This document shows positions 1-57,200 of a stretch of DNA of 64,000 bases, piece by piece. The notes beneath the pieces are model-generated. The model was not told the origin of the DNA and did no database searches. It saw only the letters and a list, made by a program, of their open reading frames with translations. Numbering within the stretch: the first letter of the stretch is position 1; each line of letters starts with the position of its first letter. The position numbers and the translations under genes were made by a program. The stretch covers positions 40,105,729 to 40,169,728 of the forward strand of contig NC_052158.1 in the NCBI RefSeq assembly GCF_902713615.1. The letters are read 5' to 3'. The DNA comes from Scyliorhinus canicula. Lineage: Eukaryota.

Positions 1-3000
1 CCTGAGACTTACCCGGTCTATCACTAACCTGGAACAGTAACCTGGGACACACCCTGTCTGTCACTAAACTGGAACAGTAACCTGGGACACACCCGGTCTA
101 TCACTAACCTGGAAGAGTAACCTGGGAAACACCCGGTATATCACTAACCAGGAACAGTAACCTGGGACACACCCGGTCTATCACTAACCTGGAACAGTAA
201 CCTGGGACACACCCGGTCTATCACTAACCTGGAACAGTAACCTGGGACACACCCGGTCTATCACTAACCTGGAACAGTAACCTGGGACAAACCCGGTCTA
301 TCACTAACCTGGAACAGTAACCTGGGACACACCCGGTCTATCACTAACCTGGAACAGTAACCTGGGACATACCCGGTCTATCACTAACCTGGAACAGTAA
401 CCTGGGACACACCCGGTCTATCACTAACCTGGAACAGTAACCTGGGACACACCCGGTCTATCACTAACCTGGAACAGTAACCTGGGACACACCCGGTCTG
501 TCACTAACCTGGAACAGTAACCTGGGACATACCCAGTCTATCACTAACCTGGAACGGTAACCTGGGACACACCCAGTCTATCACTAACCTGGAACAGTAA
601 CCTGGGACACACCCGGTCTATCACTAACCTGGAACAGTAACCTGGGACACACCCGGTCTATCACTAACCTGGAACAGTAACCTGGGACACACCGGTCTAT
701 CACTAACCTGGAACAGTAACCTGGGACACACTCCAGTCTATCACTAACCTGGAACAGTAACCTGGGACACACCCAGTCTATCACTAACCTGTAACAGTAA
801 CCTGGGACACACCCGGTCTATCACTAACCTGGAACAGTAACCTGGGACACACCCGGTCTATCACTAACCTGGAACAGTAACCTGGGACACACCCGGTCTA
901 TCACTAACCTGGAACAGTAACCTGGGACACACCCGGTCTATCACTAACCTGGAACAGTAACCTGGGACACACCCGGTCTATCACTAACCTGGAACAGTAA
1001 CCTGGGACACACCCGGTCTATCACTAACCTGGAACAGTAACCTGGGACATACCCGGTCTATCACTAACCTGGAACAGTAACCTGGGACATACCCGGTCTA
1101 TCACTAACCTGGAACAGTAACCTGGGACACACCCGGTCTATCACTAACCTGGAACAGTAACCTGGGACACACCCGGTCTATCACTAACCTGGAACAGTAA
1201 CCTGGGACACACCCGGTCTATCACTAACCTGGAACAGTAACCTGGGACACACCCGGTCTATCACTAACCTGGAACAGTAACCTGGGACACACCCGGTCTA
1301 TCACTAACCTGGAACAGTAACCTGGGACACACCCGGTCTATCACTAACCTGGAACAGTAACCTGGGACACACCCGGTCTATCACTAACCTGGAACAGTAA
1401 CCTGGGACACACCCGGTCTATCACTAACCTGGAACAGTAACCTGGGACACACCCGGTCTATCACTAACCTGGAACAGTAACCTGGGACACACCCGGTCTA
1501 TCACTAACCTGGAACAGTAACCTGGGACACACCCGGTCTATCACTAACCTGGAACAGTAACCTGGGACACACCCGGTCTATCACTAACCTGGAACAGTAA
1601 CCTGGGACACACCCAGTCTATCACTAACCTGGAACAGTAACCTGGGACACACCCGGTCTATCACTAACCTGGAACAGTAACCTGGGACACACCCGGTCTA
1701 TCACTAACCTGGAACAGTAACCTGGGACACACCCGGTCTATCACTAACCTGGAACAGTAACCTGGGACACACCCGGTCTATCACTAACCTGGAACAGTAA
1801 CCTGGGACACACCCAGGTCTATCACTAACCTGGAACAGTAACCTGGGACACACCCGGTCTATCACTAACCTGGAACAGTAACCTGGGACACTACCCGGTC
1901 TATCACTAACCTGGAACAGTAACCTGGGACAACCCGGTCTATCACTAACCTGGAACAGTAACCTGGGACACACCCGGTCTATCACTAACCTGGAACAGTA
2001 ACCTGGGACACACCCGGTCTATCACTAACCTGGAACAGTAACCTGGGACACACCCGGTCTATCACTAACCTGGAACAGTAACCTGGGACACACCCGGTCT
2101 ATCACTAACCTGGAACAGTAACCTGGGACACACCCGGTCTATCACTAACCTGGAACAGTAACCTGGGACACACCCGGTCTATCACTAACCTGGAACAGTA
2201 ACCTGGGACACACCCGGTCTATCACTAACCTGGAACAGTAACCTGGGACACACCCGGTCTATCACTAACCTGGAACAGTAACCTGGGACACACCCAGGTC
2301 TATCACTAACCTGGAACAGTACCTGGGACTACCCGGTCTATCCTAACCTGGAACAGTAACCTGGGACACATCCCAGTCTATCACTAACCTGGAACAGTAA
2401 CCTGGGACACACCCGGTCTATCACTAACCTGGAACAGTAACCTGGGACACACCCGGTCTATCACTAACCTGGAACAGTAACCTGGGACACACCCGGTCTA
2501 TCACTAACCTGGAACAGTAACCTGGGACACACCCGGTCTATCACTAACCTGGAACAGTAACCTGGGACATACCCAGTCTATCACTAACCTGGAACAGTAA
2601 CCTGGGACACACCCAGTCTGTCACTAACCTGGAACAGTAACCTGGGACACACCCGGTCTATCACTAACCTGGAACAGTAACCTGGGACACACCCAGTCTA
2701 TCACTAACCTGGAACAGTAACCTGGGACACACCCGGTCTATCACTAACCTGGAACAGTAACCTGGGACACACCCGGTCTATCACTAACCTGGAACAGTAA
2801 CCTGGGACACACCCGGTCTATCACTAACCTGGAACAGTAACCTGGGACACACCCGGTCTATCACTAACCTGGAACAGTAACCTGGGACACACCCGGTCTA
2901 TCACTAACCTGGAACAGTAACCTGGGACACACCCAGTCTATCACTAACCTGGAACAGTAACCTGGGACACACCCGGTCTATCACTAACCTGGAACAGTAA

Positions 3001-6000
3001 CCTGGGACACACCCGGTCTATCACTAACCTGGAACAGTAACCTGGGACACACCCGGTCTATCACTAACCTGGAACAGTAACCTGGGACACACCCGGTCTA
3101 TCACTAACCTGGAACAGTAACCTGGGACACACCCGGTCTATCACTAACCTGGAACAGTAACCTGGGACACACCCGGTCTATCACTAACCTGGAACAGTAA
3201 CCTGGGACATACCCGGTCTATCACTAACCTGGAACAGTAACCTGGGACATACCCGGTCTATCACTAACCTGGAACAGTAACCTGGGACACACCCGGTCTA
3301 TCACTAACCTGGAACAGTAACCTGGGACACACCCGGTCTATCACTAACCTGGAACAGTAACCTGGGACACACCCGGTCTATCACTAACCTGGAACAGTAA
3401 CCTGGGACACCCAGGTCTATCACTAACCTGGAACAGTAACCTGGGACACACCCGGTCTATCACTAACCTGGAACAGTAACCTGGGACACACCCGGTCTAT
3501 CACTAACCTGGAACAGTAACCTGGGACACACCCGGTCTATCACTAACCTGGAACAGTAACCTGGGACACACCCGGTCTATCACTAACCTGGAACAGTAAC
3601 CTGGGACACACCCGGTCTATCACTAACCTGGAACAGTAACCTGGGACACACCCGGTCTATCACTAACCTGGAACAGTAACCTGGGACACATCCAGTCTGT
3701 TACTAACCTGGAACAGTAACCTGGGACACACCCGGTCTATCACTAACCTGGAACTGTAACCTGGGACACACCCTGTCTATCACTAACCTGGAACAGTAAC
3801 CTGGGACACCCGGTCTATCACTAACCTGGAACAGTAACCTGGGACACACCCGGTCTATCACTAACCTGGAACAGTAACCTGGGACACACCCGGTCTATCA
3901 CTAACCTGGAACAGTAACCTGGGACACACCCGGTCTGTCACTAACCTGGAACAGTAACCTGGGACACACCCGGTCTATCACTAACCTGGAACAGTAACCT
4001 GGGACACACCCGGTCTATCACTAACCTGGAACAGTAACCTGGGACATACCCAGTCTATCACTAACCTGGAACAGTAACCTGGGACAGACCCAGTCTATCA
4101 CTAACCTGGAACAGTAACCTGGGACACTCCCGGTCTATCACTAACCTGGAACAGTAACCTGGGACATACCCGGTCTATCACTAACCTGGAACAGTAACGT
4201 GGGACAGACCCGGTCTATCACTAACCTGGAACAGTAACCTGGGACACATCCGGTCTATCACTAACCTGGAACAGTAACCTGGGACACACCCGGTCTATCA
4301 CTAACTTGGAACAGTAACCTGGGACACACCCAGTCTATCACTAACCTGGAACAGTAACCTGGGACATACCCGGTCTGTCACTAACCTGGAACAGTAACCT
4401 GGGACACACCCGGTCTATCACTAACCTGGAACAGTAACCTGGGACACACCCGGTCTATCACTAACCTGGAACAGTAACCTGGGACACAACCGGTCTATCA
4501 CTAACCTGGAACAGTAACCTGGGACACACCCGGTCTATCACTAACCTGGAACAGTAACCTGGGACACACCCAGTCTATCACTAACCTGGAACAGTAACCT
4601 GGGACTAGCCCGGTCTATCACTAACCTGGAACAGTAACCTGGGACACACCCAGTCCATCACTAACCTGGAACAGTAACCTGGGACACACCCGGTCAATCA
4701 CTAACCTGGAACAGTAACCTGGGACACACCCGGTCTATCACTAACCTGGAACAGTAACCTGGGACACACCCAGTCTATCACTAACCTGGAACAGTAACCT
4801 GGGACACCCGGTCTATCACTAACCTGGAACAGTAACCTGGGACATACCCAGTCTATCACTAACCTGGAACAGTAACCTGGGACACACCCAGTCTATCACT
4901 AACCTGGAACAGTAACCTGGGACACACCCGGTCTATCACTAACCTGGAACAGTAACCTGGGACATACCCAGTCTATCACTAACCTGGAACAGTAACCTGG
5001 GACACACCCAGTCTATCACTAACCTGGAACAGTAACCTGGGACACACCCGGTCTATCACTAACCTGGAACAGTAACCTGGGACACACCCGGTCTATCACT
5101 AACCTGGAACAGTAACCTGGGACACACCCGGTCTATCACTAACCTGGAACAGTAACCTGGGATACATCCAGTCTGTTACTAACCTGGAACAGTAACCTGG
5201 GACACACCCAGTCTATCACTAACCTGTAACAGTAACCTGGGACACACCCGGTCTATCACTAACCTGGAACAGTAACCTGGGATACACCCGGTCTATCACT
5301 AACCTGGAACAGTAACCTGGGACACCCGGTCTATCACTAACATGGAACAGTAACCTGGGACACTCCCGGTCTATCACTAACCTGGAACAGTAACCTGGGA
5401 CACACTCGGTCTATCACTAACCTGGAACAGTAACCTGGGACACACCCGGTCTATCACTAACCTGGAACAGTAACCTGGGACATACCCGGTCTATCACTAA
5501 CCTGGAACAGTAACCTGGGACATACCCGGTCTATCACAAACCTGGAACAGTAACCTGGGACACACCCGGTCTATCACTAACCTGGAACAGTAACCTGGGA
5601 CACACCCGGTCTATCACTAACCTGGAACAGTAACCTTGGACACACCCGGTCTATCACTAACCTGGAACAGTAACCTGGGACATACCCAGTCTATCACTAA
5701 CCTGGAACAGTAACCTGGGACACACCCGGTCTATCACTAACCTGGAACAGTAACCTGGGACACATCCAGTCTGTTACTAACCTGGAACAGTAACCTGGGA
5801 CACACCCAGTCTATCACTAACCTGGAACAGTAACCTGGGACACACCCGGTCTATCACTAACCTGGAACAGTAACCTGGGACATACCCAGTCTAACACTAA
5901 CCTGGAACAGTAACCTGGGACACACCCAGTCTATCACTAACCTGGAACAGTAACCTGGGACACACCCGGTCTATCACTAACCTGGAACAGTAACCTGGGA

Positions 6001-9000
6001 CACATCCAGTCTGTTACTAACCTGGAACAGTAACCTGGGACACACCCGGTCTATCACTAACCTGGAACTGTAACCTGGGACACACCCTGTCTATCACTAA
6101 CCTGGAACAGTAACCTGGGACACCCGGTCTATCACTAACCTGGAACAGTAACCTGGGACACACCCGGTCTATCACTAACCTGGAACAGTAACCTGGGACA
6201 CACCCGGTCTATCACTAACCTGGAACAGTAACCTGGGACACACCCGGTCTGTCACTAACCTGAAACAGTAACCTGGGACACACCCGGTCTATCACTAACC
6301 TGGAACAGTAACCTGGGACTCACCCGGTCTATCACTAACCTGGAACAGTAACCTGGGACATACCCAGTCTATCACTAACCTGGAACAGTAACCTGGGACA
6401 GACCCAGTCTATCACTAACCTGGAACAGTAACCTGGGACATACCCGGTCTATCACTAACCTGGAACAGTAACGTGGGACAGACCCGGTCTATCACTAACC
6501 TGGAACAGTAACCTGGGACACATCCGGTCTATCACTAACCTGGAACAGTAACCTGGGACACACCCGGTCTATCACTAACCTGGAACAGTAACCTGGGACA
6601 TACCCGGTCTATCACTAACCTGGAACAGTAACCTGGGACACACCCGGTCTATCACTAACCTGGAACAGGAACCTGGGACACACCTGGTCTATCAGTAACC
6701 TGCAACAGTAACCTGGGACACACCCGGTCTATCACTAACCTGGAACAGTAACCTGGGACACACCCGGTCTATCACTAACCTGGAAAAGTAACTTGGGACA
6801 CACCCAGTCTGTTACTAACCTGGAACAGTATCCTGGGACTAGCCCGCTCTATCGTAAACCTGGAACAGTAACCTGGGACACACCCAGTCTATCACTAACC
6901 TGGAACAGTAACCTGGGACACACCCGGTCTATCACTAACCTGGAACAGTAACCTGGGACACACCCGGTCTATCACTAACCTGGAACAGTAACCTGGGACA
7001 CACCCAGTCTATCACTAACCTGGAACAGTAACCTGGGACACCCGGTCTATCACTAACCTGGAACAGTAACCTGGGACATACCCAGTCTATCACTAACCTG
7101 GAACAGTAACCTGGGACACACCCAGTCTATCACTAACCTGGAACAGTAACCTGGGACACACCCGGTCTATCACTAACCTGGAACAGTAACCTGGGACATA
7201 CCCGTCTATCACTAACCTGGAACAGTAACCTGGGACACACCCAGTCTATCACTAACCTGGAACAGTAACCTGGGACACACCCGGTCTATCACTAACCTGG
7301 AACAGTAACCTGGGACACACCCGGTCTATCACTAACCTGGAACAGTAACCTGGGACACACCCGGTCTATCACTAACCTGGAACAGTAACCTGGGATACAT
7401 CCAGTCTGTCACTAACCTGGAACAGTAACCTGGGACACACCCAGTCTATCACTAACCTGTAACAGTAACCTGGGACACACCCGGTCTATCACTAACCTGG
7501 AACAGTAACCTGGGATACACCCGGTCTATCACTAACCTGGAACAGTAACCTGGGACACCCGGTCTATCACTAACATGGAACAGTAACCTGGGACACACCC
7601 GGTCTATCACTAACCTGGAACAGTAACCTGGGACACACTCGGTCTATCACTAACCTGGAACAGTAACCTGGGACACACCCGGTCTATCACTAACCTGGAA
7701 CAGTTACCTGGGACATACCCGGTCTATCACTAACCTGGAACAGTAACCTGGGACATACCCGGTCTATCACTAACCTGGAACAGTAACCTGGGACACACCC
7801 GGTCTATCACTAACCTGGAACAGTAACCTGGGACACACCCGGTCTATCACTAACCTGGAACAGTAACCTGGGACACACCCGGTCTGTCACTAACCTGGAA
7901 CAGTAACCTGGGACATACCCAGTCTATCACTAACCTGGAACAGTAACCTGGGACACACCCGGTCTATCACTAACCTGGAACAGTAACCTGGGATACATCC
8001 AGTCTGTTACTAACCTGGAACAGTAACTTGGGACACACCCAGTCTATCACTAACCTGTAACAGTAACCTGGGACACACCCGGTCTATCACTAACCTGGAA
8101 CAGTAACCTGGGACACACCCGGTCTATCACTAACCTGGAACAGTAACCTGGGACACCCGGTCTATCACTAACCTGGAACAGTAACCTGGGACACACCCGG
8201 TCTATCACTAACCTGGAACAGTAACCTGGGACACACTCTGTCTATCACTAACCTGGAACAGTAACCTGGGACACACCCGGTCTGTCACTAACCTGGAACA
8301 GTAACCTGGGACACACCCGGTCTATCACTAACCTGGAACAGTAACCTGGGACACACCCGGTCTATCACTAACCTGGAACAGTAACCTGGGACATACCCAG
8401 TCTATCACTAACCTGAAACAGTGACCTGGGGCACACCCGGTCTATCACTAACCTGGAACAGTAACCTGGGACACAACCGGTCTATCACTAACCTGGAACA
8501 GTAACCTGGGACACACCTTGTCTATCACTAACCTGGAACAGTAACCAGGGACATACCCACTCTATCACTAACCTGGAACAGTAACCTGGGACACACCCAG
8601 TCTGTTACTAACCTGGAACAGTAACCTGGGACACACCCGGTCTATCACTAACCTGGAACAGTAACCTGGGACACACCCGGTCTATCACTAACCTGGAACA
8701 GTAACCTGGGACACACCCGGTCTGTTACTAACCTGGAACTGTAACCTGGGACACACCCGGTCTATCACTAACCTGGAACAGTAACCTGGGACACCCGGTC
8801 TATCACTAACCTGGAACAGTAACCTGGGACACACCTGGTCTATCACTAACCTGGAACAGTAACCTGGGACACACCCGGTCTATCACTAACCTGGAACAGT
8901 AACCTGGGACACACCCGATCTATCACTAAACTGGAACAGTAACCTGGGACAGACCCAGTCTATCACTAACCTGGAACAGTAACCTGGGACACTCCCGGTC

Positions 9001-9420
9001 TATCACTAACCTGGAACAGTAACCTGGGACACATCCGGTCTGTTACTAACGGGAACCGTAACCTGGGACAAACCCGGTCTATCACTAACCTGGAACAATA
9101 ACCTGGGACACACCCGGTCTATCACTAACCTGGAACAGTAACCTGGGGACACACCCAGTCTATCACTAACCTGGAACAATAACCTGGCACACCCTCAGTC
9201 TATCACTAACCTGGAACAGTAACCTGGGACAGACCCAGTCTATCACTAACCTGGAACAGCAACCTGGGACACACCCGGTCTATCACTAACCAGGAACAGT
9301 AACCTGGGACACACCCGGTCTATCACTAACCTGGAACAGTAACCTGGGACATACCCGGTCTATCACTAACCTGGAACAGTAACCTGGGACACACCCGGTC
9401 TATCACTAACCTGGAACAGT
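1..9420. repeat. 40-bp tandem satellite, about 235 copies (CCTGGGACACACCCGGTCTATCACTAACCTGGAACAGTAA); runs off the left edge
   Basis: Exact 40-bp periodicity visible throughout. The minus-strand ORFs here are repeat translations. Confidence 0.99.
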
Positions 9421-17166: not shown

Positions 17167-17656
17167 CTGCAGAAGTGAAATAAATGTCAGTTAGAATGGG
17201 GAATAATCCATTATCAGAGAGTGAGAACACAACAAGTGTGAGGGAATGGAGATTGTGTGAGAAATACTCATTCCCACACTCCCCTCCATCCTTACACTTT
17301 ATGTAAATCCTGTAGATCTCTTCCATCCCATCCATATTCAGTAGGTGGGGATGTTAGTGGGTTTAATGATCAATATTAGACCTGGTGTGGGCTGATCACA
17401 CAAAGGAAGAACAGACAGGGAACAAGATGTGTTTATACGTGTATCTGTGTGGGAATTAAATCAGTTCATTCAACACAGTGTCCTGTACTCCCAGTACTGG
17501 GGATCCCTCCACACTTACTCTGTCCCCTCAGTTCTACATTCCCCTCTCTCTCTCTCTCCCCTCTCAGTGTCCTGTACTCCCAGTACTGGGGATTCCCCCA
17601 CACTCACTCTGTCCCCTCAGTTCTACATTCCCCTCTCTCTCCCCTCTCAGTGTCCT

Positions 17657-20600
17657 TGTGGTGAGATAACCACTGTAGTTATGTGTACTGCTGTAGGGGG
17701 ATGTATGCCTGTACCTGTAATACAGGTTCCTCCGGTCAGCCCCTGCCGGCTAGCTCCGCCCACAGGGAGCTTGTGTATAAATATGTATGAGAGCTGCTCA
17801 GACCCTCAGTCTACAGTTGCGGATGGAGGGACAACATCGTACAGCAATAAAGCCTCTATTGTACTAGTCTCTCGGCTTTGAGTATAATTGTTAGCGCCAC
17901 AATTTATTGCTGTACGATTTCCCAGTCACCATGGACATCAGAGTCAAGCCTGACCGTCTGCAGCTGGATCCACATTCGCCTCACGCCAGAAAAGACTTTG
18001 ATCACTGGCTCGCAGTCTTCGAGGCCTACATCTCTTCAGCAGACCCTCCCCCGACGGAGGCTCAGAAAAAGCAACTCCTGTACTCCAGACTTAGCTCCAG
18101 CGTCTTTCCGCTCATTCGAGATGCGACCGACTACACTGCAGCTATGGAACTGCTCAAGGAAAATTATGCACCATCGACGAACACCCTGTTTGCGAGGCAT
18201 CAACTTTCTACTCGCGTCCAACAGCCGGGTGAGTCGATTGAGGACTTCTGGAGGGCCCTTATACCTCTGGTACGAGACTGCGACTGCCGGGCCCTCACAG
18301 CCGCGGAACATTCGGATTTACTCATGCGCGATGCCTTCGTTACAGGCATTGCATCGGACCCCATCCGGCAACGACTGCTGGAAGGGGTCGCCCCCGACCT
18401 CGCGTCCGCAAAGGCCCTGGCGCTCTCCATGACGGCCGCCTCCCGTAGTGCGCACACTTACTCCGCTAGCCACTCGGCCCACCCGTCCTACCCCTCGTGG
18501 ACCCCGCAAACGGCTCCCCAGGCCCATCCGTCCCACCCCTCGTGGACCCCGCAAACGGCCCCCCCAGCAGCCGCCCCCGCGCACTATGCCTGCGCTGCCC
18601 GCCGCACCGCACCCCCTGGGGGTCCCCACTGTTACTTCTGTGGCCAACAGAAGCACCCTCGCCAACGCTGCCCGGCCCGCACAGCGACCTGCAAAGCTTG
18701 TGGCAAGAAAGGCCACTTTGCAGCGGTGTGTCAGTCCCGGACGGTCGCCGCTATCGCGCCGCCGGTCCCCACGCCTCAGCCGCTCCCTCAATGGGCCCTG
18801 CCGTCCGCTTCCCCCGACCCCACGTGCAATCAGTGGGCGCCGCCATCTTTTGCCGCCCCCGCCACGTGCGCCCCATGGGCGCCGCCATCTTCATCCACCA
18901 CAGCCATGTGCGTTCCATGGGCGCCGCCATTTTGTTCCGACCCCATAACGTGCGCTCCATGGATGCCGCCATTTTACCCACAGGTACTGCGGATGCCGCC
19001 ATCTCGTCTCCAGGGGCCGCCATCATGGGACACGGGTCGCTACCGCTCCTCGTCGGACTCATCTGACTCAACCGCCGACCAACCACTGCTCGCCTCCGTT
19101 ACGCTCGACCAGTCCCGTCCTCGCAACCTGGCACCCTCTTCCACATCGGTGCTGGTCAACGGCCATGTGACCTCCTGCCTCATCGAGTCCGGGAGCACCG
19201 AGAGCTTCGTCCACCCGGACACGGTAAGGCGCTATTCCCTTGCGATCCACCCCGCCGACCGGCAGATCTCCCTTGCCTCCGGTTCCCACTCTGTCCCGAT
19301 CCGGGGTTTCTGCCTGGTTAAACTCACTGTACAGGGTGTGGAATTCGACCGTTTCCGTCTGTACATTCTCCCCGACCTCTGCACTTCACTCCTACTAGGC
19401 CTGGATTTCCAGTGCAATCTCCAGAGCCTCACCCTCAAATTCGGTGGACCCTACCTCCCCTCACCGTTTGCGGCCTCGCGACCCTCAAGGTCGAGCCCCC
19501 CTCCCTCTTTGCCAATCTGACTGTGGATTGCAAGCCCGTCGCCACCAGGAGCAGACGGTACAGCACCCAGGACAAGGCCTTCATCAGGTCCGAAGTCCAG
19601 CGGCTGCTTCGGGAGGGTATCATCGAGGCCAGCAACAGCCCTTGGAGAGCCCAGGTGGTAGTGGTTAAGACCGGGGAGAAGCACAGGATGGTCGTGGACT
19701 ACAGCCAGACCATCAACCGGTACACGCAGCTCGACGCGTACCCCCTCCCCCGCATTTCTGATATGGTCAATCAGATTGCACAGTACCGGGTCTTCTCTAC
19801 TATTGACCTGAAATCCGCCTACCACCAGCTCCCCATCCGTAAATCGGACCGTCCCTACACTGCCTTTGAGGCGGACGGTCGTCTGTACCAATTTCTGAGG
19901 GTTCCCTTCGGCGTCACGAATGGGGTCTCGGTCTTTCAGCGAGAAATGGACCGAATGGTTGACCGGTACGAATTGCAGGCCACCTTCCCGTACCTCGACA
20001 ATGTCACCATCTGCGGCCATGACCAGCAGGACCATGATGCCAACCTTTATAAATTCCTCCACACCGCATCTCTCCTTAATCTCACGTACAACAAGGAGAA
20101 ATGCGTGTTCCGCACAGACCGCTTAGCCATCCTTGGCTACGTAGTCCAAGACGGACTACTGGGGCCCGATCCCGACCGCATGCGCCCTCTCATGGAGCTC
20201 CCAATTCCCCACTGCCCCAAGGCCCTCAAACGCTGCCTTGGGTTTTTCTCTTATTACGCCCAGTGGGTCCCGCAATACGCAGACAAGGCCCGGCCACTTA
20301 TCCAGTCCACACATTTTCCCCTCTCGGCCGAGGCACAACAGGCCTTCGCCTGCATTCGATCTGACATAGCCAGGGCGGGGATGCACGCCGTAGACGAGAC
20401 TCTGCCTTTCCAAGTAGAGAGCGACGCTTCAGATGTCGCCCTTGCCGCCACGCTGAATAAGGCCGGCAGACCCGTGGCATTCTTTTCACGCACCCTCCAC
20501 GCCTCCGAAATTCGGCATTCCTCTGTCGAAAAGGAAGCCCAGGCAATCGTTGAAGCGGTGCGGCACTGGAGGCATTACCTGGCCGGCAGGAGATTCACTC

Positions 20601-22273
20601 TCCTCACTGACCAACGGTCGGTAGCCTTCATGTTCAGCAACACGCAGCGGGGCAAGATCAAGAATGACAAAATCCTGCGGTGGAGAATCGAGCTCTCCAC
20701 CTTCAACTGCGAGATCTTGTATCACCCCGGCAAGCTCAACGAGCCCCCAGACGCCCTCTCCCGAGGTACATGTGCCAGTGCACAAGTGAACCAGCACCGT
20801 GCCTTGCACGACAGCCTTTGCCATCCGGGGGTCACCCGCTTGTACCATCTGATCAAAGCCCGCAATCTGCCCTACTCCGTCGAGGAAGTACGGACAGTCA
20901 CCAGAGACTGCCAGATCTGTGCGGAGTGCAAGCCGCACTTCTACCGGCCAGATCGCGCGCGCCTGGTGAAAGCATCCCGCCCCTTTGAACGCCTCAGCGT
21001 GGACTTCAAAGGGCCCCTTCCCTCTACCGACCGCAACACCTACATCCTTAGTGTGGTCGATGAATTTTCTAGGTTCCCCTTTGCCATCCCATGCCCAGAT
21101 ATGACGTCTGCCACCGTCATCAAGGCCCTGGATTCCATTTTCGCCCTGTTCGGTTTCCCCGACTATATCCACAGTGACAGGGGATCCTCATTCATGAGCG
21201 ATGAGCTGCGTCAGTTCCTGCTCAGCAGGGGTATCGCCTCCAGCAGGACGACCAGCTACAACCCCCGGGGAAACGGGCAGGTAGAGAGGGAGAACGGGAC
21301 GGTATGGAGGGCCGTCCAGCTGGCCCTACAGTCCAGGAACCTCCCAGCCGCTCGCTGGCAGCAGGTCCTCCTGACGCGCTCCATTCCATTCGGTCGCTAC
21401 TGTGCACCGCAACCAACAGTACACCCCATGAACGCGTTTTTGCCTTCCCTAGGAAGTCCACATCCGGAGTGTCGCTCCCGACTTGGCTCACGACTCCGGG
21501 CCCAGTCCTTCTCCGTAGGCATGTACGGCACCACAAGGCGGAACCCCTGGTGGACAAAGTACGCCTTCTCCACGCCAACCCTCAGTATGCCTACGTGGAG
21601 TTCCCCGACGGCCGCCAGGACACAGTCTCGCTCCGGGACCTGGCTCCCTCAGGTGCCGATCCCATGCCCACACCCCTTCCTGCGCCAACCCCAGCGCCCC
21701 CCTATTCGTCCCCATCAGGTCCATCCCTCATCCCCCTGCCCACCCTGGAGGACATGGAAGATTTCGGCTTGCTCTCGGAGTCATCCCGCCAGCAGCCAGC
21801 ACCAACACCGCCAGCACCTGCACCATCGGGGCCATCACCGCCTGTGCCGACGTCACCACCACAGCTACGCCGATCACAGCGGAACGTCCGACCACCGATT
21901 CGGCTCAACCTGTAACCTGCTAACCGGATGGACTCTTGATTTTCCTTGTTGGACCCTCTTGTAAATAGCATCCTTTGTATTACAGTTACATGTCACCCCC
22001 GCCGGACTCATTTTTTACAGGGGGTGAATGTGGTGAGATAACCACTGTAGTTATGTGTACTGCAGTAGGGGGATGTATGCCTGTACCTGTAATACAGGTT
22101 CCTCCGGTCAGCCCCTGCCGGCTAGCTCCGCCCACAGGGAGCTTGTGTATAAATATGTATGAGAGCTGCTCAGACCCTCAGTCTACAGTTGCGGATGGAG
22201 GGACAACATCGTACAGCAATAAAGCCTCTATTGTACTAGTCTCTCGGCTTTGAGTATAATTGTTAGCGCCAAA
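17657..22273 (+). mobile_element. Young, near-intact Ty3/Gypsy LTR retrotransposon (Mag-like architecture inferred)
   Basis: 245-bp LTRs (17657-17901, 22029-22273) with 2 differences; PPT ACAGGGGGGTGAA; gag with two zinc knuckles, PR, RT, RNase H, IN. Confidence 0.97.
17931..21915 (+). CDS. Gag-Pol polyprotein (about 1328 aa if two single-C deletions at 19449-19451 and 21370-21371 are restored)
   Basis: CYFCGQQKHPRQRC / CKACGKKGHFAAVC knuckles; LIESGS protease motif; RT PFG...YLDN; RNase H VESDAS; IN HPGV...CQIC, VDFKG, SDRG, GQVEREN. Confidence 0.9.
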
Positions 22274-23802
22274 CCCAGTACTGGGGATTCCCCCACACTC
22301 ACTCTGTCCCCTCAGTTCTACATCCCCCTCTCTCTCCCCTCTCAGTGTCCTGTACTCCCAGTACTGGGGATTCCCCCACACTCACTCTGTCCCCTCAGTT
22401 CTACATTCCCCTCTCTCTACCCTCTCAGTGTCCTGTACTCCCAGTACTGGGGATTCCCCACACTCACTCTGTCCCCTCAGTTCTACATTCCCCCCTCTCT
22501 CTCTCTCTCAGTGTCCTGTACTCCCAGTACTGGGGTTCCCCCCCCCCCCCCCCCCCCCACACACTCACTCTGTCCCCTCAGTTCTACATTCCCCTCTCTC
22601 TCCCCTCTCAGTGTCCTGTACTCCCAGTACTGGGGATTCCCCCCACACTCACTCTATCCCCTCAGTTCTACATTCCCCTCTCTCTCCCCTCTCAGTGTCC
22701 TGTACTCCCAGTACTGGGGATTCCCCCCACACTCACTCTGTCCCCTCAGTTCTACATTCCCCTCTCTCTACCCTCTCAGTGTCCTGTACTCCCAGTACTG
22801 GGGATTCCCCACACTCACTCTGTCCCCTCAGTTCTACATTCCCCTCTCTCTCTCTCCCCTCTCAGTGTCCTGTACTCCCAGTACTGGGGATCCCCCCACA
22901 CTCACTCTGTCCCCTCAGTTCTACATTCCCCCCCCTCTCTCTCTCCCCTCTCAGTGTCCTGTACTCCCAGTACTGGGGATCCCCCCACACTCACTCTGTC
23001 CCCTCAGTTCTACATTCCTCTCTCTCTCTCCCCTCTCAGTGTCCTGTACTCCCAGTACTGGGGATCCCCCCACACTCACTCTGTCCCCTCAGTTCTACAT
23101 TCCCCCCCCTCTCTCTCTCCCCTCTCAGTGTCCTGTACTCCCAGTACTGGGGATCCCCCCACACTCACTCTGTCCCCGCAGTTCTACATTCCCCCCTCTC
23201 TCTCTCTCCCCTCTCAGTGTCCTGTATTCCCATTACTGGGAATCCCCCACACTCACTCTGTCCCCTCAGTTCTACATTCCGCTCTCTCTCCCCTCTCAGT
23301 GTCCTGTACTCCCAGTACTGGGGATCCCCCCACACTCACTCTGTCCCCGCAGTTCTACATTCCCCTCTCTCTCCCCTCTCAGTGTCCTGTACTCCCAGTA
23401 CTGGGGATTCCCCCCACACTCACTCTGTCCCCTCAGTTCTACATTCCCCTCTCTCTCTCTCTCCCCTCTCAGTGTCCTGTACTCCCAGTACTGTGGATTC
23501 CCCACACTCACTCTATCCCCTCAGTTCTACATTCCCCTCTCTCTCCCCTCTCAGTGTCCTGTACTCCCAGTACTGGGGATCCCCCCACACTCACTCTGTC
23601 CCCTCAGTTCTACATTCCCCTCTCTCTCCCCTCTCAGTGTCCTGTACTCCCAGTACTGGGGATTCCCCCCACACTCACTCTGTCCCTCAGTTCTACATTC
23701 CCCTCTCTCTCTCTCTCCCCTCTCAGTGTCCTGTACTCCCAGTACTGGGGATTCCCCCACACTGTCCCCTCAGTTCTACGTTCACCTCTCTCTGATTCTT
23801 AC

Positions 23803-27596: not shown

Positions 27597-28326
27597 TGAA
27601 TCCGATCCCGTAGTCGAGAGGGTCCAACTGCTACACACAAACCCTCAATACGCCTACGTTGAGCACACTGACGGCAGACAGGATACGTCTCTCTGCAAGA
27701 CCTGGCACCCGCTGGCTCTCCCACCGACCCCACCGACTCTTCCACCAAACCCGACGTTTTCCCCACCGAACACCCCCCCCCCCGCCCGTCTACCGACGCT
27801 CCCCGCCCCACACCGACTGCCGACTCCGACAGCGCCCCCCCATAGCGCCCCCTGGCCCCCAGCCGGTGCCGGCACCGATCACCGTAATCACCCCTGATAC
27901 CCCCCATCCAAGGCGGGCAAAGACTCAGCCAACCGCGCTCCCAGATACACCACCATCGGAACCGACCGCATCCACGGCGCCACCAACGGAGCAGCGAAAG
28001 TCAGCACGGACTATCAGACCACCACAAAGACTGAACTTATAACTCCACTTCACCCCCGAAGGACAATGTGTTTTTTTTAAACAGGGGGTGAATGTGATGA
28101 ACGGTATTAATAACTGCTGTAAACGGTACCTGACCTTTAATACCTTGCCCCTTTAAGATGCTAGGAACCCTGGGGGACTCCGCCTCTGGCTATGCTCCCA
28201 GGAAATGGTATATAGGATAAGGCTCCATGTGGTGAGCACACTTCTCTCGGGTGCTGTTCAGTTCTCTGTAGATTAAAGCCTTTTCATTACCGACCTCACT
28301 CTCGCGTCGTAATTGAGGGTGCCTCA
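27595..28326 (+). mobile_element. Gypsy 3' fragment: integrase C-terminus, PPT and 3' LTR (28093-28326)
   Basis: DPVVERVQLLHTNPQYAYVE..DGRQDT.SL...RKSARTIRPPQRLNL*; ACAGGGGGTGAA PPT; TG...CA LTR. Confidence 0.9.
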
Positions 28327-29188: not shown

Positions 29189-31646
29189 GGATTAGAATAG
29201 CGGTTTTAATATACTCACAACAGAGCCAGCCGGTTAGCCATTGAACTTTCGGTGAATTGGCCGGCTGACCATGTGGCACTGATCTTTATACAGCAGCTCC
29301 AGGGGGAGGAGTCCTGGACTGAACCAAGGGAGAAACCCAGTACAATTCTCGAGCCTTCCCAGAGCTACACCCCTGGTGGTCAGGTAATGCAACTGCACTT
29401 ACAATACAGGCACATGTATATACAGATTATAATCCAGTGTGAATCACATTCACCACATTCACCCCCTGTGAAAAAAATGGAGTCCAGCGGGGGGGGGGGG
29501 GGGGGTGGCTCACAGAGTTAGTCTGTCTGGTGGACGAATTGTTCATTTCGATCTGCGGAGCACCGGGGTTGCAGCCTCTTGCGGTGGCTGGGTGGGTGTT
29601 GAGAGCTGGGGTACAATGGCAGACTCCAGGGCGGGTCTCTCCCGAACTTTATACACTTCTGGCTCGACCGGAGACTGGGGTCCCTGGGGGTGGGCTGATT
29701 CTGGTACGTGGAACCGGTGGGGTGAGCTTGTGGAATCGGGGGCGTGAGGGGGCAGCAGCATAGGGAACTGGGTAAGGGGTTCCTCAGTGGGGGTGGGGGT
29801 GGGGGCAGGATCCAGCAGGTGCCAGGTCCCGAAGGGATACTGTGTCCTGGCGACCATCCGGGAACTCCACGAATGCGTACTGGGGGTTGGAATGGAGGAG
29901 GTGCACCTTTTCAACAAGGGGGTCAGTTTTGTGCCCCCTGACGTGCTTCCTCAGGAGAACCGGGCCTGGTGTCCTCAGCCACGCCGGAAGTGAGACTCCC
30001 GTGGTAGTGCCCCTAGTAAAATTGAAGAGTCGCTCGTGAGGGGTTTGATTTGTAGCTGTACAGAGGAGGGATCTGATTGCGTGGAGCGCGTCTGGGAGGA
30101 CTTCTTGCCATTGGGAGACTTGGGGTTTCAGAGTTTGAAGGGGATGGATCCCAAGATGGCCTCCCCCATGAGTCGCACATGGCCGGCCGCATGGCGGAGG
30201 ATTGCCAAGGTGGCTGCCCCCATGAGTCACACATGGCCGGCCGCATGGAAGAGGATTGCCAAGATGGCCGCCCCCATGAGTCGCACATGGCCGGCCGCAT
30301 GGAGGAGGATTGCCAAGATGGCTGCCCCCATGAGTCGCACATGGCCGGCCGCATGGAAGAGGATTGCCAAGATGGCCGCCCCCATGAGTCGCACATGTCG
30401 GGTGGGGGCGGAGTCGGCATACAGGCTGCAGCATTTCGGGGCCTGCGGGCCTGTGAATTCAGGGAACGAGTGCTTTGAGCCGTGGGAGGGTTAGAGGCTG
30501 GGGCTTTCTTTGCCAGACACACTCTGGCATAGTGTCCTTTTCACCCGCAGCTGCTGCAGGTCGCGGATCGGGCTGGGCAGTGCTGCCGCGGGTGCTGGCT
30601 TTGGCCACAGAAATGACAGGCTGGGGCAGCTGAGTAGCTGGCTGGAGCAGCTGAGTAGCTGGCTGGGGCAGCAGAGTAACTGGCTTTGGCAGCGCGGTAG
30701 CTGGGGGGGGCCGTGCGGCACAGGCTTGGGGGGACTGTTGGTCGGGGGTCCACGATGAGGTCGCGGGGTCCGCGGGAAACGAGGTGAGGCTGCGGAAGGA
30801 AACTTCCATAGTGGTAGCAGCCTCCACAGTAGTGTCTAAGTCCTGGGCCCCCTTTTCTAGCAGTCTTTGGCGCACATAGTTAGATCTAAGGCCCGCTACG
30901 AAAACGTCCCGCACAGCAAGCTCCCTATGTTCAGCCGCGGTAACGGCTTGATAATTACAGTCATTAGAAAGATTGGTCAATTCCCGTACAAATTCGGCTA
31001 GCGTTTCTGTCGGCCGCTGACGGCGAGTCGTAAACACGTGGCATGCATAAACCTCGTTAATGGGCCTAACGTATATTTGTCCAATATTGCCAGCGCTGCG
31101 GTGTAAGAACCGGCCGGATTCAGCTGTGTGGAGATTCTGTGGCTTACCCTTGCGTACAGTAGGCTGAGTTTTTGTTCCTCCATTGTTCAGCTGTGCTGGC
31201 TTCTGCCTGGGAGGCTTTAAAACATCCCAGCCAGTGGGAAAAAATGTCCTTAGCCTCTGCATCCTCTGGGTCGAGTTCTAGGCGTCCGGGCTTGAGGGCT
31301 GCTTCCATGATTTCTTTGACTGTTTCCTGAGTATATTAAATTGTTGGAACCAACAATTCTACGGCCACGTGCTTGTAGGATTAGAATAGCTGTTTAATAT
31401 ACTCACAACAGAGCCAGCCGGTTAGCCAGTGAAATTTCGGTGAACTGGCCGGCTGACCATGTGGCACTGATCTTTATACAGCAGCTCCAGGGGGAGGAGT
31501 CCTGGGGGGAACCAAAGGAGAAGCCCAGTACAATTCTCGAGCATTTCCAGAGCTACTCCCTCTGGTGGTCAGGTAGTGCAACTGCACTTACAATATAGGC
31601 ACATGTATATACAGATTATAATCCGGTGTGAATCACATTCACCACA
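29189..31646 (-). mobile_element. Internally deleted Gypsy element (gag remnant fused to IN C-terminus; PR/RT/RH missing)
   Basis: LTRs at 31342-31646 and 29189-29457 (3' copy truncated); gag motif AVRDVFVAGL...RQRLLE and zinc knuckles; four 54-bp tandem repeats; QWQEVLPDALHAIRSLLCTATN. Confidence 0.92.
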
Positions 31647-36373: not shown

Positions 36374-39300
36374 TGTGGTAAACCATGGTCATTACATTAT
36401 ATACATTATGGTACACTGTCATCCTATTACATGTACTATGGTAAACCTCTGCCTGCTGGCTCTGCCCCGCAGGCTTGGTCTAAAAGTGTCTGACCACCTG
36501 CACTGCCCCAGTTTTGGGATCAGTCCAGGAGGCTTCGTGTCTAGTGTATTAAAGCCTCAGTTTTGTTCACCACTCATCGTGTGTTAATTGATAATCCACA
36601 AGCAGCCGACGCCACTGCGACATTCGAGCACTGGCTAGCCTGTTTCAAAGCGTACCTCGGATCCTCCACCGACGTCGTCACGGATATCCAGAAGCTTCAA
36701 CTACTTAATGCACGGGTGAGCTCGCAGGTTTACCTCCTCATCAGAGACGCTCCCTCGTACACGGAGGTAATAAGTCTGCTGAAGGGGCAGTACATAAAGA
36801 CAGTAAACCAGGTGCACGCCAGACATCTCCTGGCCACATGGTGACAATGCCCCGGAGAATCTCAAGACGATTTCCTGCGTGCCTTGCGGGTACTCGGCCA
36901 GAAATGTAGTTGCCAGGCGGCATCGGCTGTCCAACACACAGAGCTGCTGATCAGGGATGCCTATGTCGCAGGCATTAAATCACACCAGCGCTTGCTAGAA
37001 GTGGGTACACTCGGCCTGACAGAGACAGTGTAGCTCGCAAACACTTTGAAAATGGCTTCCCGTAACATGGAGGCCTACATCCCCGACCACGCGGCACCCT
37101 CGGGGATGTCGTGCGCTCCGCAATCACTCGACCCGAGCGTGTCGCAAGCCTGCGCTGCCCGGCAGACCGCTAGCTCCGGAGGCCCGATGTGCTACTTTTG
37201 CAGCCAGGGTAAGCACCCCAGACAACGCTGCCCCGCATGGAACACGACTTGCTCCGGGTGTGGGAAGAAGGGCCACTTCGCCAAAGTCTGCCAGGCCCGA
37301 ACTGTCTCTGCCGTCTCCAGGCCCAGCAGCGCTGCCGCGAACTCCGCCATGTGCGACCCATGGGCGCGCAATCTTGATTCAACCTGCCACGTGTGACCTG
37401 TGGGGGCCGCCATTTTGCCGCCACCTTCACTCCCACCTGCGACCCATGAGCGCCGCCATCTTCGCTGCCATCTGCAACTCCACTCGCGACCCATGGGGGC
37501 AGCCATCTTGGAACCACCCCGTCACCATCCGGGACCCTGCTCGCCTGGCCGTACGCTGCTTCCGCTACCTCCACTGCCGCTGACTGGCCCATCCACCACT
37601 TTCCGAAGCTCGCATCCATCACCCTTGACCAGTCTCGACCTCGCAACCTCGCAAAATCCACGATGGCCGTCCGGATCAACGGGCACGAGGCGACCTGCCT
37701 CTTCGACTCCGGGAGCACGGACAGCTTCATGCACCCAGACATGGTGAGGCGCTACTTCCCTCCCAATTTTAACCCGTGACCCAGAAAATCTCTCTGGCCT
37801 CCGGATCCCACTGTGGAAATCCGGGATACTGTGTCGCGGCCCTTTCAGTACAGGGCGTAGAGTACACTAATTTCAAACTCTACGTCCTCCCCCATCTCTG
37901 CGCTGCACTGTTACTGGTCTCGATTTTCAGTGCCATCTCCAAAGCCTTGCCCTGACGTTTGGTGGACCCCTGCCGCCACCCCGCCGCCCCCCCCCCCCCC
38001 CCCCCCCCCGCCCCCTCTCACCGACTGTAGCCTCGCGACCCTTAAGTTTCCTCCACCATTGCTCTTCGCTAATCTCATCCCGGACTTTAAACCCGTCGCC
38101 ACAAGGAGCAGACGGTACAGTGCCCAGGACAGGACCTTTATCAGGTTGGAGGTCCAGCGACTCTTGCGAGAGGGGATCACAGAGGCCAGTAACAGCGCTT
38201 GGAGAGCCTAAGTGGTGGACATCAAGACTGGGGAGAAGAGGGACAGCACGGTGTACAGTGGGTTAGCATTACTGCCTACAGCGCTGAGGACCGGGGTTCG
38301 AATCCCGGCCCCGGGTCCTGTCCGGTGGAGTTTGCACATTCTCCCCGTGCCAGCATGGGTTTCACCCGCAAAACCCAAAGATGTGCAGGGTAGGTGGATT
38401 GGCCACGCTAAATTGCCCCTTAATTAGAAAAAATAATTGGGAACTCTAAATTTAAAAAAAAGACTGGGAGAAGCACTGGATGGTCATCGACTACAGTCAG
38501 ATGATAAACCGGTGCACGCAGCTTGATGCGTACCCCCTCCCCGCATATCTGACATGGTCAACCAGATTGCGCAGTATCGAGTCTTCTCCACCGTTGACTT
38601 GAAAATCCGCATACCACCAGCTCACTATCTGCCTGGAGGACCTCCAATACACTGCCTTTGAGGCAGATGGCCACCTCTACCATTTCCTTAGGGTTCCCTT
38701 CGGCATCACCAATGGGGTCTCGGTCTGCCAGCGTGAGATGGACCGAAGGCCAACTGGAAGGCCGTCCTTCTTGCCCTACGGTCTAGACATCTCCCAGTCT
38801 CCGGCTGGCAGGAAGTCCTTCCCAATGCGCTCCACTCCATCCGGTCGCTCCTGTGTATGCCACCAATAAGACCTCTCGTGAACATATGTTTGCCTTCCCC
38901 AGGAAGTCCACCTCAGGGGTCTCGCTCCTGTCCTGGCTGACAGTCTCAGGGCCCGTCCTCCTTCTGAAGCATGCAAGGAGCCACAAATCGGACCCCCTTG
39001 TCGACAAGGTCCTGCTCCTCCATGCCAACCCATAGTATGCCTACGTGGCACACCATGACGGGTGGCAGGACACAGTCTCCCTCTGGGATCTGGCACCCGC
39101 TGGTTCCCCAGCGACCATCACCGGCACCCCCGCCCCTGCACCGTTCACCCCTCCACCGGCTCAACTACTGGGTGAAGAAGAGGACAGCACGCTCCCGGAG
39201 TCGCAGGTCTCAACACCAGTGTGCACACCACAGCCGGGGCTGAGGCAATCACGACGGACGGTCAAAGCCCCTGACAGACTCAATCTTTAAGTTCACTTCT

Positions 39301-39550
39301 CCTCTGCTGGACTCTTTTTAACAGGGGGTGAATGTGGTAAATCACAGTCATTACATTATATACATTATGGTACACTGTCATCCTATGTACTATGGTAAAC
39401 CTCTGCCTGCTGGCTCCGCCCTCAGGCTTGGTATAAAAGTGTCTGACCACCTGCACTGCCCAGTTTTGGGATCAGTCCAGGAGGATTCGTATCTAGTGTA
39501 TTAAAGCCTCAGTTTCGTTCAACACTCGTCGTGTGTAAATTGATGGTACA
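36374..39550 (+). mobile_element. Decayed, internally deleted Gypsy element
   Basis: LTRs start at 36374 and 39333 (ends 39550). gag knuckles, LFDSGS protease and RT up to REMDR, then a jump to the IN C-terminus. The end of the 5' LTR and the PBS are deleted. Confidence 0.92.
38238..38459 (+). mobile_element. Short A-tailed SINE inserted in the Gypsy RT
   Basis: 14-bp TSD AAGACTGGGAGAAG (38224-38237 and 38460-38473). Confidence 0.9.
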
Positions 39551-54204: not shown

Positions 54205-57200
54205 GTCACTGAGGGCCTTGCAATCTGGCTCACTGCCTTGTGTTCTCAGTGTCACTCAGGGCCCTGCAATCTGGCTCACTGTCTTGTGCTCTCAGTGTCT
54301 GAGCTCAGTGTCTGAGCTCAGGGTCCTGCAATCTGGCTCACTGTCTTGTGCTCTCAGTGTCTGAGCTCAGTGTCTGAGCTCAGGGCCCTGCAATCTGGCT
54401 CACTGTCTTGTGTTCTCAGTGTCTGAGCTCAGGGCCCTGCAATCTGGCTCACTGTCTTGTGCTCTCAGTGTCTGAGCTCAGTGTCTGAGCTCAGGGCCCT
54501 GCAATCTGGCTCACTGTCTTGTGTTCTCAGTGTCTGAGCTCAGTGTCACTCAGGGCCTTGCAATCTGGCTCACTGTCTTGTGTTCTCAGTGTCTGAGCTC
54601 AGTGTCACTCAGGGCCTTGCAATCTGGCTCACTGTCTTGTGCTCTCAGTGTCTGAGCTCAGTGTCACTCAGGGCCCTGCAATCTGGCTCACTGTCTTGTG
54701 TTCTCAGTGTCTGAGCTCAGTGTCACACAGGGCCCTGCAATCTGGCTCACTGTCTTGTGTTCTCAGTGTCTGAGCTCAGTGTCACTCAGGGCCTTGCAAT
54801 CTGGCTCACTGTCTTGTGCTCTCAGTGTCTGAGCTCAGTGTCACTCAGGGCCTTGCAATCTGGCTCACTGTCTTGTGCTCTCAGTGTCTGAGCTCAGTGT
54901 CACTCAGGGTCCTGCAATCTGGCTCACTGTCTTGTGCTCTCAGTGTCTGAGCTCAGTGTCACTCAGGGTCCTGCAATCTGGCTCACTGTCTTGTGCTCTC
55001 AGTGTCTGAGCTCAGTGTCTGAGCTCAGGGTCCTGCAATCTGGCTCACTGTCTTGTGTTCTCAGTGTCTGAGCTCAGTGTCTGAGCTCAGGGTCCTGCAA
55101 TCTGGCTCACTGTCTTGTGTTCTCAGTGTCTGAGCTCAGTGTCTGAGCTCAGGGTCCTGCAATCTGGCTCACTGTCTTGTGTTCTCAGTGTCTGAGCTCA
55201 GTGTCTGAGCTCAGGGTCCTGCAATCTGGCTCACTGTCTTGTGTTCTCAGTGTCTGAGCTCAGTGTCTGAGCTCAGGGCCCTGCAATCTGGCTCACTGTC
55301 TTGTGCTCTCAGTGTCTGAGCTCAGTGTCACACAGGGCCCTGCAATCTGGCTCACTGTCTTGTGTTCTCAGTGTCTGAGCTCAGTGTCACTCAGGGCCCT
55401 GCAATCTGGCTCACTGTCTTGTGCTCTCAGTGTCTGAGCTCAGTGTCTGAGCTCAGGGCCCTGCAATCTGGCTCACTGTCTTGTGCTCTCAGTGTCTGAG
55501 CTCAGTGTCTGAGCTCAGTGTCACTCAGGGTCCTGCAATCTGGCTTACTGTCTTGTGCTCTCAGTGTCTGAGCTCAGTGTCTGAGCTCAGGGCCCTGCAA
55601 TCTGGCTCACTGTCTTGTGCTCTCAGTGTCTGAGCTCAGTGTCACTCAGGGTCCTGCAATCTGGCTCACTGTCTTGTGCTCTCAGTGTCTGAGCTCAGTG
55701 TCTGAGCTCAGTGTCACTCAGGGTCCTGCAATCTGGCTCACTGTCTTGTGCTCTCAGTGTCTGAGCTCAGGGCCCTGCAATCTGGCTCACTGTCTTGTGC
55801 TCTCAGTGTCTGAGCTCAGTGTCACTCAGGGTCCTGCAATCTGGCTCACTGTCTTGTGCTCTCAGTGTCTGAGCTCAGGGCCCTGCAATCTGGCTCACTG
55901 TCTTGTGCTCTCAGTGTCTGAGCTCAGTATCACACAGGGTCCTGCAATCTGGCTCACTGTCTTGTGCTCTCAGTGTCTGAGCTCAGTGTCACTCAGGGCC
56001 CTGCAATCTGGCTCACTGTCTTGTGCTCTCAGTGTCTGAGCTCAGGGCCTTGCAATCTGGCTCACTGTCTTGTGTTCTCAGTGTCTGAGCTCAGGGCCCT
56101 GCAATCTGGCTCACTGTCTTGTGCTCTCAGTGTCTGAGCTCAGGGCCTTGCAATCTGGCTCACTGTCTTGTGTTCTCAGTGTCTGAGCTCAGTGTCACTC
56201 AGGGTCCTGCAATCTGGCTCACTGTCTTGTGCTCTCAGTGTCTGAGCTCAGTGTCACTCAGGGCCCTGCAATCTGGCTCACTGTCTTGTGTTCTCAGTGT
56301 CTGAGCTCAGTGTCTGAGCTCAGGGCCCTGCAATCTGACTCACTGTCTTGTGCTCTCAGTGTCTGAGCTCAGGGTCCTGCAATCTGGCTCACTGTCTTGT
56401 GTTCTCAGTGTCACTCAGGGCCCTGCAATCTGGCTCACTGTCTTGTGTTCTCAGTGTCTGAGCTCAGTGTCACTCAGGGCCCTGCAATCTGGCTCACTGT
56501 CTTGTGCTCTCAGTGTCTGAGCTCAGTGTCACTCAGGGCCCTGCAATCTGGCTCACTGTCTTGTGTTCTCAGTGTCTGAGCTCAGTGTCACTCAGGGCCC
56601 TGCAATCTGGCTCACTGTCTTGTGTTCTCAGTGTCTGAGCTCAGTGTCTGAGCTCAGGGCCCTGCAATCTGACTCACTGTCTTGTGCTCTCAGTGTCTGA
56701 GCTCAGGGTCCTGCAATCTGGCTCACTGTCTTGTGTTCTCAGTGTCACTCAGGGCCCTGCAATCTGGCTCACTGTCTTGTGCTCTCAGTGTCTGAGCTCA
56801 GTGTCACTCAGGGCCCTGCAATCTGGCTCACTGTCTTGTGCTCTCAGTGTCTGAGCTCAGTGTCACTCAGGGCCCTGCAATCTGGCTCACTGTCTTGTGC
56901 TCTCAGTGTCTGAGCTCAGTGTCACTCAGGGTCCTGCAATCTGGCTCACTGTCTTGTGCTCTCAGTGTCTGAGCTCAGTGTCACTCAGGGTCCTGCAATC
57001 TGGCTCACTGTCTTGTGCTCTCAGTGTCTGAGCTCAGGGTCCTGCAATCTGGCTCACTGTCTTGTGCTCTCAGTGTCTGAGCTCAGTGTCACTCAGGGCC
57101 CTGCAATCTGGCTCACTGTCTTGTGCTCTCAGTGTCTGAGCTCAGTGTCACTCAGGGTCCTGCAATCTGGCTCACTGTCTTGTGCTCTCAGTGTCTGAGC

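Follow-up and report, generated by a model that had tools for sequence, protein, structure and literature searches.

A family-specific match between primer-binding site and LTR points to self-priming in an animal Ty3/Gypsy lineage

Elements of the window

The window, a 64,000-nt stretch of the Scyliorhinus canicula genome (NC_052158.1, positions 40,105,729 to 40,169,728 of the forward strand), is bracketed by two long satellite arrays, one at 11-9420 (40-bp unit, ~236 copies) and the other at 54428-63995 (59-bp unit, ~164 copies), and contains Gypsy elements on both strands. The minus-strand copy at 31 kb is a 2.5-kb deleted remnant that keeps a broken gag, an integrase tail, a polypurine tract and a truncated 3' LTR, with the following features.

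31342..31646, minus strand: 5' LTR of the deleted Gypsy copy, 305 bp, TG...CA, 93% identity to 29189-29461
31472..31478, minus strand: TATA box TATAAAG; the TATA-to-hexamer spacing is constant between families
31442..31448, minus strand: initiator-like CCAGTTC, with the predicted start at A 31446, an inferred 32 nt from the first T of the TATA box
31393..31405, minus strand: LTR segment that complements the primer-binding site (PBS), candidate self-primer, predicted +42 to +54
31398-31393, minus strand: ATTAAA hexamer, the end of the PBS-complementary LTR segment
31355..31388, minus strand: inner R-U5 helix, arms ~31388-31382 and 31361-31355, G-U tolerant and covarying
31339..31358, minus strand: U5-IR-like hairpin AATTGTTG/CAACAATT, spanning the LTR end, the spacer and the first two PBS bases
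31341..31341, minus strand: spacer of 1 nt (A), 3' of the terminal CA
31328..31340, minus strand: PBS TTTAATATACTCA, without TGG and not itself a tRNA 3'-end complement
30459..31308, minus strand: gag remnant, ATG at 31308, interrupted by stops and frameshifts
29808..30123, minus strand: integrase C-terminal remnant, pol being mostly deleted
29458..29469, minus strand: polypurine tract ACAGGGGGTGAA
29189..29457, minus strand: 3' LTR, truncated ~16 nt past the hexamer

Further elements lie on the plus strand.

17657..22271, plus strand: related young element, LTRs 99.6% identical, gag-PR and RT(YLDN)-RH-IN
17776 to 17918, plus strand: LTR landmarks of the young element, namely TATA 17776, initiator A 17808, PBS-complementary segment 17836-17851, LTR end 17901 and PBS 17903-17918
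28093..28326, plus strand: 3' LTR of a fourth family, whose relatives have the predicted PBS
36374..39550, plus strand: related decayed element, its own LTR end and PBS deleted, whose relatives have the predicted PBS

Membership in Ty3/Gypsy is indicated by TG...CA LTRs, a polypurine tract, target-site duplication and the domain order PR-RT-RH-IN, and among solved structures Ty3 Gag-Pol matches best (E 1e-57). The 3' LTR of the 31-kb copy repeats the PBS-complementary segment at 29205-29217, with no complement downstream of that copy. We also observed that the young 17.6-kb element is inserted in an 83-89-bp minisatellite (17476-17656 and 22274-23793) with a 12-bp palindrome, CCCAGTACTGGG, and that the RT active site reads YLDN, not YxDD, in the window at 19322-21964.

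A stem between LTR and PBS

The 5' LTR of the minus-strand element ends ...TTCCAACA at 31342 and is followed by a single A (31341) and by TTTAATATACTCA (31340-31328), the perfect complement of TGAGTATATTAAA (31405-31393). The 13-bp stem, 1-nt spacer and 52-nt loop described for this element in the initial annotation were all borne out by inspection of the sequence. A corresponding stem of 16 bp joins 17836-17851 with 17903-17918 of the 17.6-kb element across a loop of 51. Between 9.5 and 54 kb of the window no perfect inverted repeat whose arms lie less than 120 nt apart is longer than these two stems; a scan returned 20 matches of at least 11 bp, the next in length being 12-bp satellite palindromes. 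The LTR end at CA and the 1-nt length of the spacer are set by target-site duplications of 5 bp, which 14 of the 20 full-length TG...CA relatives show. The minimum-energy fold of the leader includes the PBS helix in both window elements (z -2.6 and -4.3), and the poly(A) hexamer is wholly paired in both predicted folds. Folding of the leader RNA had been proposed as a check, and RNAalifold on 39 sequences gives only the 13-bp helix, with covariation in 8 pairs.

The PBS is not of the tRNA type: it begins TTTA, carries no TGG and changes with the LTR family, which rules out one tRNA as primer. A whole or half tRNA as primer was likewise rejected, since the PBS changes with each LTR.

Relatives of the two remaining window elements had been predicted to carry, just after the 5' LTR, a complement of their own poly(A) segment, and both predictions held. 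For the 28.1-kb LTR, TTTAATCTACAGA was found with at most one mismatch in all three gag-linked 5' LTRs, which were 3 of the 30 loci recovered with the LTR alone as query. For the 36.4-kb LTR, TTTAATACACTA was found in 8/8 gag-linked relatives, seven of which read TTTAATACACTAAAC and one of which has a single mismatch; these came from the first 25 loci examined among 566 matches to a 20-nt LTR pattern. In the 31-kb family the exact 13-mer occurs in 26 of 30 loci (the window counted) and the remaining four differ by one base, in a search whose query contained the leader and hence favoured loci carrying the 13-mer. A sister family of 75-80% identity has GTTTAGCTTATTAAA within the LTR and TTTAATAAGCTAAAC after it. 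In the 28.1-kb family, two 3' LTRs lying 8.8 kb apart (L065 and L066, G000:C10) have identical downstream flanks, which suggests that they arose by tandem duplication.

Genome-wide, the pattern AATAAA-N42-62-CAATTTATT has 10414 matches against 3981 in a reversed control, and its ATTAAA form has 16336 against 760, a combined excess of ~22,000 in the 4.2-Gb genome. These patterns fix only the hexamer, so that pairing past it serves as an unselected test: among the first 60 loci, at least 11 perfect pairs are formed in 36/51 gag-linked as opposed to 0/9 gag-less pattern matches. A chance origin of the stem was rejected on the reversed-control counts together with this contrast. Hexamers with other first letters show little excess (17248 matches against 12918 in the control), gag was present at 0/20 of their loci, and by eye none of 100 among the matches listed resembled these LTRs; from the near-control count and the lack of gag, the stem in S. 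canicula ends only in AATAAA or ATTAAA. In AATAAA families the 16-bp stem often starts at a C|A step. We describe a widespread animal Ty3/Gypsy lineage in which each family has a PBS of its own, exactly complementary to 12-16 nt of its LTR that end in TAAA.

Common ancestry of the stem-bearing families

The LTR of the 31-kb element had been regarded as unrelated to that of the 17.6-kb element, and the stem as independently present in the two families, and neither view could be upheld. The two LTRs align at a score of 114, compared with 81±7 for shuffled sequences (0/300 shuffles as high), and the gag and integrase remnants of the two elements match at 70-73%. In an RT-RH tree (FastTree, 93 of 104 rows, 11 in-genome rows being left out) the stem-bearing families of this genome cluster as a single group that takes in ray and shark proteins, nested in an 82-row clade with coral, anemone, damselfly and metagenome members, while the TGG-PBS elements of the same genome form a separate branch with support 100. 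Taken together, the LTR alignment, the coding match and the tree indicate that the families are homologous and inherited the stem from a common ancestor, and a separate origin in each family was rejected on the same three lines of evidence. The nearest relatives at the protein level carry shark and ray annotations; a search of viral contigs found no relative.

A metagenome sample of 80 loci, picked by Pol alone, included 49 with enough upstream DNA to scan. The junction TAAA|(G/A)CN or similar ... CA-A-TTT was identified in 14/49, with 11-17 pairs and 38-66-nt loops, and these stem-bearing loci reach the deepest branches of the clade. The remaining loci comprise three of one variant family, one that is probably chance and 31 with no anchored stem, among which L156, L157, L163 and L223 show a stem with a shift or mismatch. 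In the variant, deep-branching family (L214, L219 and L220) the stem between PBS and LTR is 12-13 bp long and terminates in TTGA(A) instead of TAAA, the loop measures 96-98 nt and the RT motif is YVDN.

Across 121 proteins (homologs P0002-P0121 included) the RT motif is YxDN in 98, YxDD in 22 and neither in 1. The equivalent change in Ty1, D211N, is described as keeping polymerase activity in vitro (PMC2148107), and, YxDN notwithstanding, the lineage amplified recently. The YLDN motif, which we sought for the grouping of Cigr-1, CsRN1, MolGy1-16 and Tor, is absent from the available supplement text of PMC6238403.

Predicted transcription start

In most LTR types the TATA box lies 68-71 or 78-80 nt upstream of the hexamer. 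The motif YCAKT lies at TATA+31 in 15/26 types and at +31 to +33 in 18/26, with 7 matches over all other offsets; from consensus and spacing we take these motifs to be initiator and TATA box. Transcription is accordingly predicted to start ~31 nt past TATA, at 31446 and 17808, which would place the paired segment at +42 to +54 in the 31-kb family and at +29 to +44 in the 17.6-kb family. Since the conserved TATA box and initiator lie upstream of the segment, an internal primer is predicted. RNA depth in one family (two raw-read runs and two contig sets) is even over U3, R and U5, a flat coverage that carries no information on ends, and no poly(A) end occurs among the loose ends listed. On the minus strand, an inverted repeat, CAGCCGG-CCAGT ... 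ACTGG-CTAA-CCGGCTG (31413-31458), spans the predicted start, so that its complete form would be possible only in the 3' copy of U3-R.

Covariation and probable copying of the primer

Past the hexamer, at positions 7-12, 38 LTR types pair on average at 5.53 of 6 positions with their own PBS, compared with 2.51 of 6 with a foreign one. The own-PBS level was reached in 0/10000 permutations, and slid controls gave 0.9-2.0. The six columns past the hexamer contain 95 double-sided changes in the alignment of 39 sequences.

The PBS of retroviruses is regenerated by copying of the primer, and a self-primed PBS regenerated in this way should behave as though the LTR segment existed in three copies, the PBS being the third. 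Of 60 fetched elements, 35 had an alignment of both LTRs across the segment (mean LTR divergence 4.6%), and in these the mismatches at positions 7-12 were compared: 10/210 between 5' LTR and PBS, 9/210 between the two LTRs and 16/210 between 3' LTR and PBS, the last count being due in part to one LTR pair diverged by 21%. Moreover, G-U pairs make up 5/221 in the PBS helix as against 46/205 in the RNA's inner R-U5 helix, of which both arms lie within the LTR, so that neither is copied from the other; the test counts related sequences and not independent events, and its Fisher value (3e-11) therefore makes the contrast look more certain than it is. The near-absence of G-U pairs, together with a PBS/LTR mismatch rate equal to the divergence between LTRs, suggests that the match between PBS and LTR is largely regenerated by copying of the primer during reverse transcription. 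A long helix that displaces a rival may likewise disfavour G-U pairs.

These data qualify the original reading of the compensatory change as selection on structure: the pairing is indeed conserved and covaries, but the scarcity of G-U pairs and the mismatch rates point to primer copying, and thus appear to be evidence for priming and not for a hairpin under selection alone. More generally, the G-U contrast provides a test, using nothing beyond sequence, of whether a helix is an ordinary one of RNA or reflects a primer site that was copied.

The U5-IR-like hairpin is 90% paired with 7 double changes, its CAATT arm having been preselected by the search. It overlaps the spacer and two PBS bases and is an alternative to the inner R-U5 helix. 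Because it competes for the first two PBS bases, the cut position discussed below is uncertain by 1-2 nt.

A proposed self-priming mechanism and its alternatives

We consider it likely that these elements prime reverse transcription not with a tRNA but with the 5' copy of their own LTR segment, cut near TAAA|RCC. A start ~31 nt after TATA would put the segment at about +29 to +44 or +42 to +54, from where it would fold back across a ~50-nt loop to pair with the PBS. Cleavage near or at the conserved TAAA|RCC junction, carried out by the element's own RNase H if the analogy with Tf1 holds, would free a 3'-OH one base from the LTR end. Minus-strand strong-stop DNA would then copy U5 and the part of R remaining after the cut, and would transfer to the short stretch between the hexamer and the poly(A) site at the 3' end. 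Plus-strand synthesis would copy the primer and rewrite the PBS from the LTR in each cycle, which would explain the perfect covariation.

Several observations sit less easily with priming by the 5' copy. The predicted primer carries a 28-41-nt leader, whereas the Tf1 primer is described as nt 1-11 (PMC7175516). The third, "pretzel" duplex of Tf1 was not found, pairing between the post-PBS region and the loop being no better than in shuffles (67/200) by a simple longest-helix test. The mismatch count is higher between 3' LTR and PBS, and the 31/49 metagenome loci that show no anchored stem, L188, L194 and L210 among them and many without an intact 5' LTR, also count against it.

The stem could instead serve only to hide the 5' poly(A) signal, with priming by something else. 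The complement of the segment exists only at the 5' end, the S. canicula stems end solely in the two canonical hexamers, and every base of the hexamer is paired in the predicted folds, all of which would be expected of such a device. We nevertheless regard occlusion alone as very unlikely: the stem occupies precisely the place of a primer, its spacer is fixed, there is no alternative primer site, G-U pairs are almost missing, and 6/14 metagenome stems end in GTTAAA, TTAAAA or TTTAAA. Moreover, in the metagenome loci L153 and L155 a canonical AATAAA/ATTAAA stays unpaired in the loop and the stem end is non-canonical, so that primer and poly(A) signal can be uncoupled. Hiding of the 5' poly(A) signal by the PBS helix may still be a second function in S. 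canicula, which we put forward tentatively; given the six non-canonical stem ends, it would not be a universal one.

Two further alternatives keep self-priming but change its source or its start. If the RNA 3' end were cut or trimmed to TAAA, the 3' copy of R could pair with the PBS and circularise the template. The 3' R carries this segment as well (29205-29217), R would extend ~28-41 nt upstream of it given the predicted start, and the 5' and 3' copies are indistinguishable in sequence; the 5' copy, however, is separated from the PBS by 50 nt and is the one paired in the helix of the local minimum-energy fold, while the 3' copy must remain free for polyadenylation and its tail would have to be removed, and we consider this route unlikely. 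In a strictly Tf1-like arrangement, the stem's 5' end would be the transcription start, and genomic RNA would not use the upstream TATA box and initiator. Such a start could draw on the C|A step at which the 16-bp stem of AATAAA families often begins, and on the alternative starts described for Tf2 (PMC5341516). Against it, the 31-nt TATA-to-initiator spacing is kept across divergent families and the stem begins 59-73 nt from TATA, making this arrangement highly improbable. That distance exceeds the reach of metazoan TATA-directed initiation.

Comparison with known systems

In HIV-1 and RSV, too, the RNA is structured both across the poly(A) signal and where U5 meets the PBS, in the form of the poly(A) hairpin and the U5-IR stems. 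Retroviruses prime with a tRNA, and their poly(A) hairpin is contained in the repeat; in the shark elements, unlike that hairpin, the partner strand is the PBS itself and occurs only at the 5' end.

Within S. canicula, other Gypsy elements (L344, L345, L349 and L352) have a conventional TGGCGACGAG PBS, seen in 4/12 fetched loci, together with the RT motif YLDD, and served as the outgroup. We label these Mag-type from their PBS, and we take the twin zinc-knuckle Gag that they have in common with the stem-bearing elements to be Mag-like. The two groups are alike in Ty3/Gypsy domain order, lack of env and host; they differ in that the Mag-type elements have a TGG-type PBS and YLDD, show only ~30% RT-RH identity and lie on a separate branch.

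Repbase Reports contains entries on "self-primed" animal Gypsy families, and an earlier description of self-primed animal Gypsy elements in Repbase is possible. Our literature search found no description of priming in this lineage among the papers it listed. Self-priming has been attributed to Tf1/sushi chromoviruses and some plant lineages, with experimental proof in fission yeast. If our reading is true, a second and very abundant animal lineage, whose relatives by protein come from shark, ray, coral, anemone and damselfly, needs no tRNA for its replication; such a lineage would evade control by tRNA fragments and would go undetected where LTR annotation filters on a tRNA PBS. With an internal primer that ends at the poly(A) hexamer, moreover, release of the primer would be coupled to keeping the 5' poly(A) site suppressed.

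Among plants, self-priming is predicted, by the sequence criterion that applies here too, for Tcn1 chromoviruses and for TAR (Houba/Osr-1) Copia elements, from an LTR complement that starts 0-5 bp past the 5' LTR (PMC6317226). Those lineages differ from the present one in being chromoviral or Copia, and the available text of the source mentions no link to a poly(A) signal (PMC6317226). Further literature for comparison comprises PMC3601003, PMC12471100, PMC2774666 and PMC5445492.

The closest parallel in mechanism would be Tf1, in which the first 11 bases are described as annealing and RNase H as cutting between bases 11 and 12 (PMC7175516). As in Tf1 and Tf2 of S. pombe, Tj1 of S. japonicus and the Tf1/sushi chromoviruses, the PBS complements the element's own 5' LTR, directly follows the terminal CA in place of a tRNA site, and is adjoined by a U5-IR-like hairpin (PMC7175516, PMC4600332, PMC10085805). 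Unlike Tf1, the shark lineage has a primer that is predicted to be internal (+29 to +54), 12-16 nt long and terminated by the poly(A) hexamer, and its RT motif, in a further difference from Tf1/sushi, is mostly YxDN. A chromodomain at the integrase C-terminus was found in 0/10 homologs at E≤0.1 and in none of the precomputed domains of 120 homologs; a genome search for sushi-like elements with PF16297/DUF4939 gave no match, its control being silent as well. Judged on these sequence features, the elements would work like Tf1 but would not be filed under Tf1/sushi, from which the absence of the chromodomain and of the third duplex sets them apart. We therefore offer, as a conjecture we hold at somewhat less than even weight, that tRNA-free priming arose apart from Tf1/sushi in a large non-chromoviral animal Gypsy lineage that ranks with the most abundant of this genome, with an internal primer ending in the poly(A) signal, a single helix that both provides this primer and prevents premature 5' polyadenylation, and a PBS rewritten in each cycle.
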